DNA from: Myxococcota bacterium
GTDB taxonomy: Bacteria > Myxococcota_A > UBA9160 > UBA4427
Length of the DNA stretch: 64,000 bases
NCBI GenBank assembly: GCA_965250285.1
Contig: OZ252299.1
Location: 1,568,001 to 1,632,000, forward strand
Direction: 5' to 3'
A program made the translations under genes and the position numbers. How positions within the stretch are numbered: the stretch's first letter is position 1; each line of letters begins with the position of its first letter. Below the pieces are notes generated by a model. It made no database searches and had not been told where the DNA came from. It saw only the letters and a program-made list of their open reading frames with translations. Below are positions 13,874 through 56,651 of the stretch, in pieces.

Positions 13874-13950
13874 GGCGGTGTAGCTCAGTTGGTTAGAGCG
13901 GCGGCTTCATAAGCCGTAGGTCGGCAGTTCAAGTCTGCCCACCGCTACCA
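13874..13950 (+). tRNA. tRNA-Met (CAT), probably elongator
   Basis: Acceptor stem GGCGGTG/CACCGCT-A-CCA, D arm TAGCTCAGTTGGTTAGAGC, anticodon arm GCGGC-TTCATAA-GCCGT, T arm GGCAG-TTCAAGT-CTGCC. It has no initiator 3GC pairs; Ile2 is not formally excluded. Confidence 0.95.
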
Positions 13951-50623: not shown

Positions 50624-52042
50624 ATGCAGCAGAAGGTCATCGAGTTCACGAACCTCCTTCGAAAGAGCGGGGTGCGTGTCTCCGTCGCCGAGGGGCTCGA
50701 CGCTTTCCTGGCCCTCGAAGAGCTCTCGATCGACGATCGAGCGCTGTTCAAGGACGCCTTGCGCACGACGATGGTCAAGCGCGGCGACGAGATCCCGACG
50801 TTCGACGAGCTCTTCGAGCTCTTCTTCTCGGGCTTCTACGACAATCTGCGCGATCAGTTCGGCGATCTCGGCGAGCAGATGGGCGCCGAGGGGATCGATC
50901 TCGACCAGCTGCTGCAGCAGCTCGCCGAGATGATGCAGCAGATGGATGGCGAGATGGATCTCAGCGAGCTCGCCAAGGCTCTGCTGACTCAGGATCTCTC
51001 GCAGCTCGAGAACCTGATTCGGGACGCCGCCCAGGACGCCGGCATCGACCGCATCGAGAACATGCTCCAGGTCGGCTTCTTCAGCCGGCGCACGCAGGAG
51101 CAGCTCGACATGGAAGGCGCCATGGGCGAGCTCGAGTCGCTCACCGAACGCGCCGCCGGCATGGGCATGTCGGAGGAGGATCAGGAGGGCATGCGCAAGC
51201 TCATGCAGAAGCTGCAGGAGCTCATGCGCAAGACCGTCAAGAACTTCGTCGAGCAGGAGCTGCAGACGCGGAACCATGACTACATGGAGAAGTTCCGCAA
51301 GGAGATGCTCCAGGAGAAGAGCTTCTACCACCTGACCGAGGACGAGATCGCGCGCATGCGCGAGGTGGTGAATCGGCTCGCCCAGCGCATCAAGAACGTG
51401 CTCTCGATTCGCAAGAAGCGGATCAAGCGCGGCAAGCTCGATCTGCACAACACGCTGCGCCGCAACATGGCGCACGGCGGGATCCCGTTCGAGGTGGTCT
51501 ACAAGCACCGCCGCAAGGATCGTCCGAAGCTGATCATCATGTGCGACGTGAGTTCGTCTGTCGCGAACGTCTCCCGCTTCATGCTGCAGTTCATGTACGG
51601 GCTGCAGGAGGCGTTCAACAAGATTCAGTCGTACGTCTTCGTGAGCGACCTGGGCGACGTCACGCCGGTCTTCAAGGACGGCGACGTCAACACCGCCATC
51701 GAGAAGGCGCTCGACGGCGGCGACGTCATCAACGTCTACACCCGCTCGAACTTCGGTAAGGCCTTCCATGACTTCTGGAAGGACCACCTGTCGATGGTCG
51801 ACAACAAGACGACCGTGCTGATCCTCGGTGACGCGCGCAACAACTACAACGATCCGAAGGCCTGGTGTCTCCGCGACATCCACAACAAGGCCAAGAACGT
51901 CGTCTGGCTGAACCCCGAGAGCCCGTCGGCCTGGGGCTTCGGCGACAGCGTGATGGATCGCTACATGCCGTACTGCGACATCGTCGAAGAGTGCCGCAAC
52001 CTGCGGCAGCTCTCGCGCATCGTCGACCAGATCGTCCTCTAG
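50624..52042 (+). CDS. CoxE-like VWA domain protein
   Basis: 'LRKSGVRVS', MIDAS-like 'CDVSSSV', 'ILGDARNN', 'VWLNPE', 'CRNLRQL'. Follows the CoxD-like ATPase. Confidence 0.9.
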   Translation: MQQKVIEFTNLLRKSGVRVSVAEGLDAFLALEELSIDDRALFKDALRTTMVKRGDEIPTFDELFELFFSGFYDNLRDQFGDLGEQMGAEGIDLDQLLQQLAEMMQQMDGEMDLSELAKALLTQDLSQLENLIRDAAQDAGIDRIENMLQVGFFSRRTQEQLDMEGAMGELESLTERAAGMGMSEEDQEGMRKLMQKLQELMRKTVKNFVEQELQTRNHDYMEKFRKEMLQEKSFYHLTEDEIARMREVVNRLAQRIKNVLSIRKKRIKRGKLDLHNTLRRNMAHGGIPFEVVYKHRRKDRPKLIIMCDVSSSVANVSRFMLQFMYGLQEAFNKIQSYVFVSDLGDVTPVFKDGDVNTAIEKALDGGDVINVYTRSNFGKAFHDFWKDHLSMVDNKTTVLILGDARNNYNDPKAWCLRDIHNKAKNVVWLNPESPSAWGFGDSVMDRYMPYCDIVEECRNLRQLSRIVDQIVL

Positions 52043-52058: not shown

Positions 52059-53291
52059 GTGCACCGCCTTCGTCTGGGGGCCCTGCGCATCGCGGTGCTG
52101 CTCGTCTCGCTGGGCGTTTCGCTCGCGCTGGCCGATGCGGCCTTCCGGCTCTACGAACGCATTCACCTGCTCGCGCGCATGCCCGAGCCCGGTGACGTTG
52201 GCGCCATCGACCTCGGCGCGCTCAACTACAACGAGGGCGTCGTCGAACGGAGCAAGGCTCCGGGTGAGTTTCGCGTCCTGAGCTTCGGTGACTCGTTCGG
52301 CTACAGCATCATGCAGCCCGATCGCTCCTACGCCGGCATCGTCGAGCGTGAGCTCGCCCGCGCGCGCCCCGATCTCGACGTCCGCGTCATCAACCTCGCC
52401 GAGCCCGCGACGTCGCCGCGCGACTACGTCGCGGCGTCCCGCTACTGGGCCGAGATCTTCGAATACGATGCGGTGCTGTTCCACGTCTACCTCGGGAACG
52501 ACATGATCGACGCGCCGTTCTATGACCGAACGCGCGACTGGCGGCCGATCTACGGCTTTGGCGAGCACGACCGCTCGATCGTCGATGGGCGATTGCGTCG
52601 CATCCCGCATCGCTTTCCCCTGCGCATGCTCGACCACCTCTACGCGCTGTGGCGCGCCGAGCCGCCGACCCCGCCGCCGCCCGGCTTCAACCTCGCGGCC
52701 GCGAGCAATCTCGACGAGCGCACGTTTCGGCAGACGCTGACGGCCCAGATGCTGAACTTCGACGTGGATCAGCTGGAACCGATGCGCGAGGGCTACGACG
52801 AGGTCGTGCGGCTGCTGCGCCGTGCGGTCGAGTTGAAGCAAGCCGGCAAGGGGGTCGCCGTGGCGCTGGGGCCGAGCGAGGTCCAGGTGCGCCCCGAGGT
52901 CTTCGACTGGGTGGTCGAGCAGAGTGCGCTCGATGCGGGGCGCTACGACGTCTTCTTACCGCAGCGCGTGATCGCGCGGATCGCCTCACGGATCGCGGTC
53001 GGTGTGCCTTTCTTCGACATCACAGCTGCGTTCCAGCGGCGCCACGCGGCGACGGGCGCGCCGCTCTATCACCGCCGCAACACCCACTGGGACGCCGAGG
53101 GCAACGTGCTCGCGGGAGAAGTGATCGCAAGCGTGCTCGGCGAGGTGTGGTTCGGGCTGGCGCCGTCGCCCCACACGGCGACGCCGGGCATCCCGCGTCC
53201 GGGCGGCGCGCACGTATCGGATGACGCGATCGACCTGTACGTCGACGGGCTGCTGGCGGCGCCCGACGGTGCGCCCGGGGCGGGGCCCTAG
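52059..53291 (+). CDS. SGNH/GDSL hydrolase-like membrane-anchored protein
   Basis: N-terminal TM, 'FGDSFG', 'YLGND', 'NTHWDAEGN'. Confidence 0.7.
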   Translation: MHRLRLGALRIAVLLVSLGVSLALADAAFRLYERIHLLARMPEPGDVGAIDLGALNYNEGVVERSKAPGEFRVLSFGDSFGYSIMQPDRSYAGIVERELARARPDLDVRVINLAEPATSPRDYVAASRYWAEIFEYDAVLFHVYLGNDMIDAPFYDRTRDWRPIYGFGEHDRSIVDGRLRRIPHRFPLRMLDHLYALWRAEPPTPPPPGFNLAAASNLDERTFRQTLTAQMLNFDVDQLEPMREGYDEVVRLLRRAVELKQAGKGVAVALGPSEVQVRPEVFDWVVEQSALDAGRYDVFLPQRVIARIASRIAVGVPFFDITAAFQRRHAATGAPLYHRRNTHWDAEGNVLAGEVIASVLGEVWFGLAPSPHTATPGIPRPGGAHVSDDAIDLYVDGLLAAPDGAPGAGP

Positions 53292-54637
53292 GGGCCGGAG
53301 CGCGCCCCCGAGTCGCCTCCACCGAGCCGTGGGTGCGCCTGACCATCCACAGGGTCGCCGGGCTCGATGCCGAGCAGCGCGGCCACCGTCGGGTGCACGT
53401 CGACGCTCTCCATCCCGCTCAGCTCGACGCCAGCGGGCACGGCTTCGCCCCACGCAAAGAACACGGCGTTCACGCCGGCATCGGCCTCGACCGGGTAGCC
53501 GTGCATGCCGCGGGCGCGTTCGACCTCGAGCGTCTCGCTGCCGAAGCGACCGAGCCAGCGCAGATACCAGGGCACGTGGGCGAGGTCGGCGCCCCAGTAG
53601 CCGGGGTGGGCGACGAGGATCAAGTCGCCCGATCGGGCGGACGCCCCGACGTGGACGCCGGGCGGCGGGTCGGCTGGATCGATGACGTCGAAGAATCGGC
53701 CGTTCGAGAGCGCCGCGCGTGCCTCCGGGCGTTCATCCGGGCGATCGAGGTAGACGTGGGCGACGACCCCCGCTCCCATGGCCTGTCCGTCGACACCGGC
53801 TTCGCGCAGGATCGCGTGCCAGTTGAGCATCGTGTTCACCGCGTCGACCATGCCGTGGTCGGTGGTCACGATCAGTGTGACCGATTCGCCGAACGCCCCG
53901 GCGTCGATCGCTCCCAGCACCCGGCCGATCTGAGCGTCGACCTCGGCCGTCACGGCGAGCGTCTCGGGGGCGTCGGGGCCGAAGGCGTGCCCCGTTGAAT
54001 CGGGCTCGGTGACGTACGCGGTGATCAGCCCGAGCTCGGGGTGTGTCTCGAACAGCTCGAGCACGCGATCGATCTGTTCGCTGGCGGTCGGCGGCGGCTC
54101 GCGAAACGGCTCGGCGATCGTGGCCAGCCGTCCGCGACGCGTCGACGAGTTGCCCACGGTGCCGAGCGCAGCGCTGCGCACGCCCTGGGCTTCGGCCACC
54201 TCGTGGATCAGCTCGCACTCCACGAGCCAGTCGGCGTCGCCCTTGGCGTTGTAGATGCCGCGCTCCGGATCGTCGAAGTGATTCGAGACGATGCCGTGAT
54301 GCTCGGGCCGGCATCCGGTGCCGAGGACGAAGTGGTTCGGAAGCGAGAGCGTGGGAAACTCGGGGCGCAGAGCGAGGGTCGATGCGCCTTCTGCGGCCAT
54401 CCGGTCGAGGTGCGGCGTGGGTGCTGCACGCACGGCCGCCGGCGAGAGCCCGTCGAAGATCAGCACCACGACGCGACGCGCATCGTCTTCGCGGGTCGGC
54501 ACGGTCGCGACGAAGTCGCTCGTCGGCTCGACGAACCGGCGGGCCGGGATCTCATACGGGGCGCGCGCGGAGACCGCGACGAGCACCAACGCAGCCACGA
54601 GGAGGGCGGCGACGACCAGGCCCGCACGACGCATCAT
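53288..54637 (-). CDS. Nucleotide pyrophosphatase/phosphodiesterase (alkaline phosphatase superfamily), exported
   Basis: 'FDG', 'FPTLSLPNH', 'HGIVSN', 'EPDSTGHAFGP', 'TTDHGM', 'GMHGY'. Confidence 0.88.
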   Translation of the reverse strand: MMRRAGLVVAALLVAALVLVAVSARAPYEIPARRFVEPTSDFVATVPTREDDARRVVVLIFDGLSPAAVRAAPTPHLDRMAAEGASTLALRPEFPTLSLPNHFVLGTGCRPEHHGIVSNHFDDPERGIYNAKGDADWLVECELIHEVAEAQGVRSAALGTVGNSSTRRGRLATIAEPFREPPPTASEQIDRVLELFETHPELGLITAYVTEPDSTGHAFGPDAPETLAVTAEVDAQIGRVLGAIDAGAFGESVTLIVTTDHGMVDAVNTMLNWHAILREAGVDGQAMGAGVVAHVYLDRPDERPEARAALSNGRFFDVIDPADPPPGVHVGASARSGDLILVAHPGYWGADLAHVPWYLRWLGRFGSETLEVERARGMHGYPVEADAGVNAVFFAWGEAVPAGVELSGMESVDVHPTVAALLGIEPGDPVDGQAHPRLGGGDSGARSGP

Positions 54638-54728
54638 CTCGGGTCGTCCTCGAAGCGTCGATGCATGCCGCGAAGATATCGAAGCGCAATGAAACGCATG
54701 AGGTTTGCGACGAACAGTCTTGCGCCCG

Positions 54729-54765
54729 AAAGAAGAACGCCCCGCCGGCGAACCGACGGGGCGTC
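54729..54765 (-). terminator. Rho-independent terminator
   Basis: On the minus strand: ACGCCCCGTCGG-TTCG-CCGGCGGGGCGT followed by TCTTCTTT. Confidence 0.85.
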
Positions 54766-54890
54766 AAAGGGGGAGGGCGGTGGACTCTTTAATGGGGGGT
54801 GAGAGGTTGGACATTTCCGAGAGAAATGACCAATCCACCGCCGCTCCGAAACCCTTTGCTTCCTCAGTCTGTGGTCGCGGTCACGACCTT
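54729..54890 (-). ncRNA. Putative ~160-nt structured small RNA (or attenuator leader), family not recognised
   Basis: Bounded by a TTGACA-N16-CATAAT promoter and an intrinsic terminator; folds by eye into a 5' hairpin plus a multi-branch domain. Confidence 0.7.
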
Positions 54891-54895
54891 GAATG

Positions 54896-54923
54896 ATTAT
54901 GGCTGGCTGGCCTCCGATGTCAA
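54896..54923 (-). promoter_or_regulatory. Sigma70-type promoter
   Basis: Minus-strand TTGACA (54923-54918), 16-nt spacer, CATAAT (54901-54896), with A/T-rich sequence upstream. Confidence 0.75.
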
Positions 54924-55094
54924 TCACGATTTGATTTTCGGAGCGAATCCCGCACCCGAAAAACCCTCGAAAAAACGAGACAATAGCCGGGGAGTTTCGT
55001 TCGTTTCCTGCGCTTTTCCGGGTGCTTCCGATCGACGGCTGCCGATTTGGTCGGGCCGCCGCCTTCGACTAGGTTCTGCGCGCCCGCCGAACGG

Positions 55095-56651
55095 ATGACG
55101 ATCGAGCCTCGAAACGTGAGCGATTCCCGCAGCTTCCATATCCGCACCTACGGGTGCCAGATGAACGTCCACGACTCGGAGAAGATCGAGAATCTGCTCT
55201 TCCACGCGGGGCTGCGGCCGGCCGAGGTCGAGGCCGAGGCCGACGTGCTGATCATCAACACCTGTTCGATTCGCGACAAAGCCGAGAATCAGCTCTACAG
55301 CGACCTGGGCAAGCTGCGGGACTGGCGCGGTGCGCGCCCGGGGCGCGCGCTCGGGGTCGGGGGGTGCGTCGCCCAGCAGGTCGGCGACGGCCTGCTCGCG
55401 CGATTCTCGCACCTCGACTTCGTGTTCGGCACGCACAACGTGCGCCACGTCCCGGCAATGGTCGACGCCGCGCTGGCCGGCGACCGCGCCGCCGACACCC
55501 GGGAGACGAGCGACGTCGACCGATTCGATCTGCCTGCTCCCCACGCCGAGCGCGCGCCGCGTGCCGGGGGCAAGGCGTACGTCACGATCATGGAAGGCTG
55601 CGACATGTTCTGCAGCTTCTGCATCGTGCCGACGACGCGGGGGCGCGAGATCAGCCGGCCGGCCGAGGCCATCCTCGCCGAGGCCCGCCAGCTCGCCGCT
55701 GCGGGCATCCGCGAGATCACGCTGCTGGGCCAGACCGTGAACGCCTACGGGCGCCACGACGTGCGGCGGGGCAAGGCGGCCGAGAAGGGCACGATGCCGT
55801 TTGCCGATCTGTTGCGGGCGCTCGACGCGATCCCGGGGCTCGAGCGCATTCGCTACACGAGCCCGCACCCGCTCTTCTTCGACGACGACCTGATCGCCGC
55901 CCACGGCGAGCTCGAGAAGCTCTGCCCCCACGTGCACCTGCCGGTCCAGAGCGGCTCCGACCGGGTCCTCGAGGCCATGCACCGACGGTACGGCCGAGCA
56001 CGCTATCTCGAGATCGTCGCGGGCCTCAAGGCGTCGCGGCCCGGGCTCACGGTCAGCAGCGATCTGATCGTCGGCTTCCCGACCGAGACCGAGGCCGAAT
56101 TCGAGGAGACGCTCGAACTGATCCGCCAGGCCGGCTTCGTCGACAGCTTCAGCTTCAAGTACTCGCCGCGGCCCGGGACCCGGGCGGCGGAGCTCGGGGG
56201 CGAGGTGCCCGGCGAAGAGGCTCAGCGGCGTCTGATGGCCCTGCAATCGCTGCAGCGGGAGCAGACCCTGGCCTACCACCGCAGCCGCGTCGGCAGCACC
56301 ACGCGCATTCTGGTGGAGGGCGACAGCCGGCGGGGGGCCGGGCAGGTGATGGGCCGCGATCCCCACCACCGGGTCGTGAATCTGTCTCCGCCGACCGGAT
56401 CGGTCTTCACTGCGGGCGTCGAGCCGGGCGCGATGGTCGACGTCGACGTGGTGGAGGCGACGCCCCACAGCCTGATTGGCGCGCCGCTGGGCGCGGCTGC
56501 AGCCGTGCGCGACGAAGCAGCTGAAGCCCCGGGCGAATCGAGCGAAATCGCCGGCGGGCGAGTGAAGTGGGCGCCCCGTCCCGCCGATGAGACCGGGTGG
56601 AGGGGTGGCCGCCCGGACACGCCGAATGATCCCCTCCGTGTGATCGGCTGA
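55095..56651 (+). CDS. miaB: tRNA-i6A37 methylthiotransferase MiaB
   Basis: 'TYGCQMNVHDSE', 'NTCSIRDKAE', radical SAM 'GCDMFCSFC', 'HLPVQSGS', 'FKYSPRPGT', TRAM domain. Confidence 0.96.
   Translation: MTIEPRNVSDSRSFHIRTYGCQMNVHDSEKIENLLFHAGLRPAEVEAEADVLIINTCSIRDKAENQLYSDLGKLRDWRGARPGRALGVGGCVAQQVGDGLLARFSHLDFVFGTHNVRHVPAMVDAALAGDRAADTRETSDVDRFDLPAPHAERAPRAGGKAYVTIMEGCDMFCSFCIVPTTRGREISRPAEAILAEARQLAAAGIREITLLGQTVNAYGRHDVRRGKAAEKGTMPFADLLRALDAIPGLERIRYTSPHPLFFDDDLIAAHGELEKLCPHVHLPVQSGSDRVLEAMHRRYGRARYLEIVAGLKASRPGLTVSSDLIVGFPTETEAEFEETLELIRQAGFVDSFSFKYSPRPGTRAAELGGEVPGEEAQRRLMALQSLQREQTLAYHRSRVGSTTRILVEGDSRRGAGQVMGRDPHHRVVNLSPPTGSVFTAGVEPGAMVDVDVVEATPHSLIGAPLGAAAAVRDEAAEAPGESSEIAGGRVKWAPRPADETGWRGGRPDTPNDPLRVIG

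Follow-up and report, generated by a model that had tools for sequence, protein, structure and literature searches.

The 6C RNA (B11, RF01066) of high-GC Gram-positive bacteria pairs G-rich mRNA sites by its C6 loops without a chaperone, and its over-expression elongates cells (PMC6486639, in excerpt). The RNA described here, which is encoded divergently from miaB in a myxobacterial genome, may, by analogy, likewise pair G-rich mRNA sites without a chaperone. The two differ in architecture: the six conserved C are present only once in the new RNA, in an asymmetric internal loop with one long seed, whereas 6C exposes them in C-rich hairpin loops (its stem-loops) and belongs to another phylum. 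In addition, ftsZ, a candidate target here, was a negative control for 6C according to the same excerpt (PMC6486639). Resemblance only is noted to Pxr, a Myxococcus sRNA of ~110 nt with a C-rich tract (seen in the probe sequence) from genomes without Hfq (PMC5568312, in excerpt). According to that excerpt, Pxr has a sigma-54 promoter behind nla19/pxrR (PMC5568312), whereas the new RNA features a sigma-70-type promoter and lies divergent from miaB; moreover, Pxr consists of three serial stem-loops and the new RNA of a nested fold. Pxr is also treated in PMC5684412, PMC10217877 and PMC11928866.

Other related systems act at the dcw cluster or on ftsZ. The sRNA StsR of Rhodobacter sphaeroides pairs with and remodels UpsM, a structured RNA heading the dcw cluster (PMC8266604, partial text). 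A system of this type is defined by refolding and RNase E cleavage of the dcw leader in response to the sRNA; here, too, an sRNA is by calculation complementary to a structured RNA at this cluster. The putative partner differs in that it is located behind mraZ in one order and before it in the other; furthermore, the sRNA has a sigma-70-like promoter, and its seed matches the ribosome-binding sites (RBS) of ftsA and ftsZ in addition. The mRNA of ftsZ is acted on by DinR of Klebsiella, which occupies the RBS (PMC10907235, in excerpt), and by StfZ of E. coli (PMC9628754, in excerpt), but DinR is Hfq-dependent and arises by processing of a 3' UTR, while StfZ is cis-antisense. Finally, the mraW RNA motif (RF01746) is a structured RNA before mraW (rsmH), the same position as that of the mraZ element presented below (PMC3890552, partial text). 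The sRNA family is new and its kind is known; its putative partner is unusual in consisting of two parts.

The gene was predicted in the window, i.e., the whole stretch of 64,000 nt analysed, as an unannotated ~160-nt structured RNA with its own promoter and terminator on the minus strand, and both signals are found in the sequence as described. The -35 hexamer TTGACA (54918..54923, minus strand) and the -10 hexamer CATAAT (54896..54901, minus strand) are separated by 16 nt; this arrangement at 54923-54896 has 11/12 consensus matches and was observed once compared to 0.1 expected in shuffles. Just upstream of the -35 hexamer, an A-tract with a GTG/GTT motif (54924-54935, minus strand) recurs in 126 promoters and may serve as an UP element or be bound by a regulator. 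The intrinsic terminator (54728..54765, minus strand) comprises a hairpin of 13 pairs (54765-54736) with a TTCG loop and a U-rich tail. Together with a 154-nt contig from an RNA library, promoter and terminator predict a primary transcript of ~161 nt (54729..54889, minus strand, strand inferred). It contains a conserved core of ~125 nt (54729..54853, minus strand), defined by homologue alignment, covariation and a covariance model, and a genus-specific 5' leader (54858..54888, minus strand) of a hairpin (54873-54888) and a linker. The latter two had been part of the original prediction and exist in this sequence, but they occur in only 2 of 145 loci, lie outside the family core and are no family feature. 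The leader is variable in general, because the TTGAC...-10 pattern, which precedes the core in 127/145 loci, does so at a distance of 7-217 nt. The divergent neighbour miaB (55095..56651, plus strand; TIGR01574 with 459 bits vs a cut-off of 355) has its start from the home-made gene caller used throughout, by which some starts were placed wrongly, e.g., that of ftsA by three codons. The region had also been called much more AT-rich than the flanking genes; its GC content is indeed lower, but the difference is moderate (0.60 for the RNA and 0.55 for the promoter vs 0.71 for the flanking genes).

The minimum free energy (MFE) fold of the 164-nt strand 54890-54727 (minus) reaches -84 kcal/mol with a z-score of -6.36, which none of 200 shuffles equalled, and it contains every helix that had been named. 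Nevertheless, these helices fare differently in the family. The pairings GGAG/CUCC and AAAGGG/CCCUUU are both seen, but both need one same C, as only four C are present. Likewise, the two inner hairpins form in the MFE structure, but the outer UUG/CAA pairs and the CUCU/AGAG pairs are formed in 52 and 44% of cases, respectively, with no compensatory change, so that one of the two hairpins is kept (P3) and the CUCU/AGAG hairpin is not. The C-rich stretch is therefore a long open loop in the family and not a small hairpin loop. Testing homologues for covariation revealed a covarying core of ~125 nt: for the 33 named pairs, pairing in the MAFFT alignment amounts to 93.2% and 18 of them are changed on both sides, which was reached by 0/500 shuffles, and slid-structure controls on the same alignment gave 43-55% pairing. 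The double-changed pairs belong to the terminator (10 of 12), P2 (4 of 9) and P3 (4 of 8), with none in P1. The closing helices P1 (54847-54844 with 54775-54772) and P2 (54842-54834 with 54784-54776), both within 54772..54847 on the minus strand, are 96.4 and 98.5% paired, and P2 is fully compensated in the divergent genome G045. The inner hairpin P3 (54810..54830, minus strand; 92-99% paired) has a variable loop. Accordingly, the family fold consists of a closing helix, a short inner hairpin, a ~24-nt open strand and the terminator. Within the open strand lies the nearly invariant, single-stranded C-rich seed (54793..54809, minus strand), the 17-mer CAACCUCUCACCCCCCA, with an unpaired probability of its C-run of >=0.98. 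It is exact in 61/64 loci found by BLAST, a count from which later loci were left out since they had been selected on this 17-mer. The spacing of indels across the core is spread over three frames (94/27/18), and the core is thus regarded as non-coding.

Homologues were detected by BLAST in 56/61 relatives including the own genome and in 54/57 other genomes of the class, which we take to be UBA9160. Outside of the class, 8/243 genomes gave a BLAST match, each to the terminator part only. A covariance model, for which 90 of the 142 trimmed cores were used, found one copy in 26/27 class genomes, and matches in 3/122 genomes outside, at <=30 bits and all without the seed. Family f10 was missed by BLAST and has degenerate copies at the same place (43 bits in G053 and 26 bits in G045), which retain P1, P2 and a C6-C8 run. 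A scan of a species collection with 19 bases yielded at least 119 loci; among the matches listed, 117 represent the RNA and two are chance hits, and the loci derive mostly from metagenome bins of Myxococcota or Deltaproteobacteria. A few loci under other phylum labels show the same surroundings and are read as mislabelled or misbinned. No exact match of the pattern was found in viral contigs. The gene is real, and the sRNA family is conserved across an uncultured myxobacterial class.

In a close relative, expression of the RNA as a short, discrete species is also seen. The ~160-nt species to be looked for in RNA-seq data is represented by a 154-nt metatranscriptome contig spanning promoter to terminator (54733-54886), which was obtained from run X1, shows 6 differences and no loose ends and is the sole X1 contig on 11 kb. 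Run X9 contains a 144-nt contig over the core with adapters at both ends (depth 57) and run X4 a further one over the core (depth 44); contigs listed elsewhere have depths of 2-10, depth being a poor measure here. Against a discrete transcript, contigs of runs X3 and X5 extend across the promoter. The analysis covered seven of the nine RNA runs, all in the form of contigs, which show neither strand nor true ends. Contig ends recur at 54768-54771 in runs X2, X7 and X9, but were not counted as a processed end because they may be priming stops at the terminator; an adapter end at 54852 stems from a single contig.

The RNA reaches the cut-off of no Rfam family: at the gathering score, Rfam gave nothing at the locus or in seven homologous loci, and a tRNA gene (13874-13947, plus strand) is the sole Rfam match at cut-off within the window. 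The best weak match, Spot 42 (RF00021), scored 26.9 vs 80 bits with several broken pairs and was rejected. A relation to Pxr (RF01812), which had been suggested for checking, was not found, as there was no match at E up to 10 (cut-off 80 bits) and the locus differs, too; since none of 150 genomes of the phylum passed this model either, the comparison has no positive control. The 6C model (cut-off 47 bits) did not match the locus, its best score in the genome being 22.1 bits elsewhere, and 14 controls likewise gave nothing over the cut-off. For 6S RNA (RF00013), no match was obtained at the locus, and the best one of this genome is located in a coding frame. A role as a 6S stand-in was rejected, since G050 and G045 have true 6S genes over the cut-off and both also hold this RNA. 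6S was not detected in 24/24 genomes of family f1, and the gap between zapA and its neighbour, presumably ygfA (L070:1880-1935), is with ~50 nt too short to contain it. In a literature search that did not cover subscription journals, no paper on this RNA was found; the main texts of PMC11109978 and of the preprint 10.64898/2026.10.21.760802 do not mention it, although their supplements could list the family.

The RNA probably acts in trans, its C-rich loop pairing with sites at ftsA, ftsZ and beside mraZ and thereby regulating or dampening dcw expression. The supposed pairing of the C-rich loop to G-rich Shine-Dalgarno regions gains support from conserved candidate sites at all three places. 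A G6 run lies within 25 nt before the start of ftsA in 37/50 and of ftsZ in 35/44 loci of the class, compared to 1/40 and 1/27 outside, and the longer GGGGGUGA precedes ftsA in 16/50 and ftsZ in 23/44 class loci but in 0/40 and 0/27 outside, whereby the genomes are related and the counts therefore not independent; ftsZ starts were placed in 44/50 class and 27/40 outside loci. For comparison, G6 occurs before miaB in 2/113 loci and before 98/5185 of all genes in this genome (GGGGGUGA: 0/113 and 7/5185), and same-class controls gave 0/30 for mraZ, 0/29 for rsmH and 2/28 for zapA. Perfect complements to the seed at ftsA and ftsZ reach 13 nt. The calculated duplexes at these sites amount to -23.2 and -26.6 kcal/mol with the seed vs -15.5 and -16.0 with the 16S tail, and among 5184 5' windows the ftsZ site ranks 10th and the ftsA site 30th. 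A genome-wide target search over 5185 called genes also listed ftsA and ftsZ, but the enrichment is mild: 10 seed complements of >=10 nt at start codons compared to 0-10 for 30 shuffled seeds. As the 16S tail of this genome is canonical, a changed ribosome is no explanation for G6, although G6 could also be used as a Shine-Dalgarno sequence through G-U pairing, which speaks against the targeting. Family f10, in which the seed has drifted, offers a separate comparison. Its four ftsA/ftsZ sites each pair best with the seed of their own genome (margins to the next seed 1.1-5.9 kcal/mol). The G045 seed reaches -21.6 on ftsA and -26.3 on ftsZ of G045 vs -15.9 and -21.8 for the usual seed, and the G053 seed -20.1 on its ftsZ vs -12.6, whereas ftsA of G053 has an ordinary GGAGG site that is weak with every seed. 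Two further observations concern ftsZ in this class: FtsZ has a long, variable N-terminal extension, and in the ftsA-ftsZ interval (L240-L269) a GTGTTACATT-like motif recurs shortly before ftsZ, which suggests an internal ftsZ promoter.

The third candidate site is more complex. In this genome, 11 nt behind mraZ and before rsmH, UAAUGGGGGG is followed by a hairpin and then by GAGAGGUUGG; together, the two sequences make up the complement of the 21-nt loop, which the hairpin splits into halves. The whole element (L276:954-1105; G000:C1:2748153-2748305) features two G-runs and covarying stems. The calculated pairing with the seed (-31.6 kcal/mol) ranks first among 5185 3' windows (next -24.2) and is ahead of all 5184 5' windows. 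The split complement is present in 22/27 loci of the window's order, the exceptions being the two f10 genomes plus three further ones, and in 0/23 outside of the class (26 fetched, 3 not aligned); a G6 run at this position occurs in 27/27 loci of the order vs 5/23 outside. In the intervening hairpin and the following long stem, which carries the second G-run in its loop, 15/21 consensus pairs are double-changed over 24 sequences. Up to E = 1, none of the Rfam models, the mraW motif RF01746 included, matched any of four mraZ loci. The mraZ-rsmH element is thus an undescribed structured RNA deserving a family model of its own. In the other order of the class (f13), mraZ and rsmH abut with no gap, and the mraZ leader of 23/23 genomes contains a long hairpin that exposes G7-9 at the tip; the GAGAGG partner was not found there, although the seed is intact. 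This f13 hairpin (L382, L385, L389, L393, L497-L515) lies ~60-105 nt before the mraZ start and behind the mraZ promoter, and many loci have a second hairpin over the mraZ start region. In f10, the mraZ site lacks its GAGAGG half, which has disappeared together with the 5' half of the seed. Several findings count against the pairing or weaken it: the two f10 mraZ loops show no preference for their own seeds, GAGAGG also pairs in cis with the 3' end of the element, which alone could conserve it, and the net energy of seed binding after opening ranges from +3.3 to -26.4 kcal/mol over 22 loci, with +1.2 in this genome. Cofolding of the whole molecules gains 3.4 kcal/mol only, with loop-loop pairing outside the model.

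Regarding the mechanism, the scaffold would present the C-rich strand, and pairing could nucleate between its C6 run and a G6 run. A duplex formed at ftsA or ftsZ would cover the Shine-Dalgarno sequence and keep the 30S subunit from loading. On the mraZ element, the 5' G-run or the G-loop would be the docking site for the C6 run; GAGAGGUUGG would next be invaded by the 5' half of the seed, whereby the 3' strand of the element itself would be displaced. This displacement might alter how the downstream operon is read through or processed or how stable it is, or it might titrate the sRNA. The G-C-rich pairing would make Hfq unnecessary, and none was found in this 95%-complete genome. In its most far-reaching form, this amounts to a class-wide two-RNA division switch, in which an invariant 21-nt strand would gate the dcw operon at three points without Hfq, blocking the ftsA and ftsZ RBS and opening the mraZ-side RNA by toehold strand displacement across a three-way junction; it is put forward tentatively, as one possibility. 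Rather doubtful is a reversed relation, according to which release of the mraZ element would yield a stable RNA, abundant enough to sponge the sRNA, and dcw transcription itself would relieve the repression of ftsA and ftsZ. The element would be suited for this by its two G-runs, the strongest complement in the genome, a stable fold (z -3.63) and an end that is often a pyrimidine tract, and its f13 counterpart directly follows the mraZ promoter, as UpsM does (PMC8266604, partial text). In the window's order, however, it is located inside the operon and its release would need processing or termination. This sponging is compatible with the RBS part of the preferred explanation.

An effect of the RNA beyond the dcw genes was considered as well. 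In this genome, 103 genes have G6 near the start, among them murA, murB, murJ, ddl, cpoB, tolQ, smc, recN and mutL, the names having been derived from 19 hand-picked proteins. A broad anti-Shine-Dalgarno damper on ~100 such genes, with the dcw genes as only a part of the set, would agree with this number, with G6 at tolQ in 3/4 relatives, with G6 loops behind nrdJ in 5/11 loci of the order and with the many targets of 6C RNA (PMC6486639, in excerpt). Such a damper is nevertheless unlikely, as conservation is seen for ftsA, ftsZ and mraZ but not for ihfA (G6 in 0/5), smc (1/5), zapA and ftsQ, which are not supported as conserved targets. The nrdJ hairpin is partly supported as a conserved target. 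Not counting two truncated loci and four that hold a shorter paralogue, G6 is found within 190 nt of the nrdJ stop in 8/24 loci, and none of the loci of the other order has it in a hairpin loop. Long hairpins with G6-7 loops lie directly behind nrdJ (L342:715-780, minus strand; L429, L433, L434, L439), and two nrdJ hairpins carry a 12-nt complement of the seed. Seed complements of 9-10 nt also occur at the RBS of genes for two lysine/alanine-rich histone-like proteins, one of them HC2 (L271:369-923, minus strand; L272:359-637, plus strand).

It is quite unlikely that a protein binds the G-runs, or that they simply represent a strong Shine-Dalgarno variant kept by descent, and that the RNA acts otherwise, e.g., as a decoy for a protein binding C-rich RNA. 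G6 pairs with the 16S tail and is used by 98/5185 genes here, several G6 sites are not conserved (ihfA 0/5, smc 1/5, zapA 2/28), and the seed varies less than would usually be expected from only a few targets. On the other hand, G6 at ftsA and ftsZ tracks the presence of the RNA, G-runs are also present beside mraZ, in loops that are not an RBS, a single site offers a complement to each half of the seed, and seed and sites drift together in f10.

The genomic surroundings bear on the remaining readings. Divergence from miaB holds here as well as in 115/115 loci with enough flank, whereas the downstream gene varies: a convergent VWA gene is found in 84/111 loci, a thiolase gene in 8 and a phosphodiesterase gene in 2, both of the window's own genus. 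The VWA (CoxE-like) gene of the window (50624..52042, plus strand) is 62% identical to the gene downstream of the RNA in those 84/111 loci; in most relatives it is convergent and abuts the RNA, with two genes in between here. These are an SGNH-like gene and the type I phosphodiesterase gene, which only in this genus separate the VWA gene from the RNA (52059-54637). In G045, a ribBA-like sequence adjoins the RNA instead. The inconstant downstream partner, the own promoter and terminator and the conserved candidate targets all favour the trans-acting reading. It is very improbable that the opposite strand is the functional one, forming a G-rich element at the 3' end of the convergent VWA mRNA: this strand carries the same G-rich motif as the targets, the VWA gene abuts the locus in most genomes and the RNA contigs are unstranded, but the promoter is directed into the C-rich strand in 127/145 loci, the U tail belongs to that strand, the P2/P3 variants on it are mostly G-U (~30 cells vs ~5 A-C) and the core persists where the VWA gene is displaced. 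The alternative offered by the original prediction, a cis-acting attenuator or riboswitch for the phosphodiesterase gene (PF01663; 53288..54637, minus strand), can practically be dismissed: the gene does start co-directionally 92 nt behind the terminator and its U tract, in agreement with the ~90 nt given, but it follows the RNA in just 2/111 loci while 84/111 have a convergent gene, so that cis control is ruled out by the variation of downstream genes and the phosphodiesterase gene is a genus-specific neighbour and not a regulated partner, and neither a covarying antiterminator nor an Rfam riboswitch match was found.

Few sRNA families are conserved class-wide with target sites that can be read from genomes alone. 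For a lineage present here only as metagenome-assembled genomes, likely targets can now be named, and a second undescribed RNA element is added to the dcw operon. Moreover, family f10 offers natural compensatory variants. Thus, two questions become testable in vitro or in a surrogate host: the control of division by RNA in high-GC bacteria without Hfq, and toehold displacement in a natural RNA pair.
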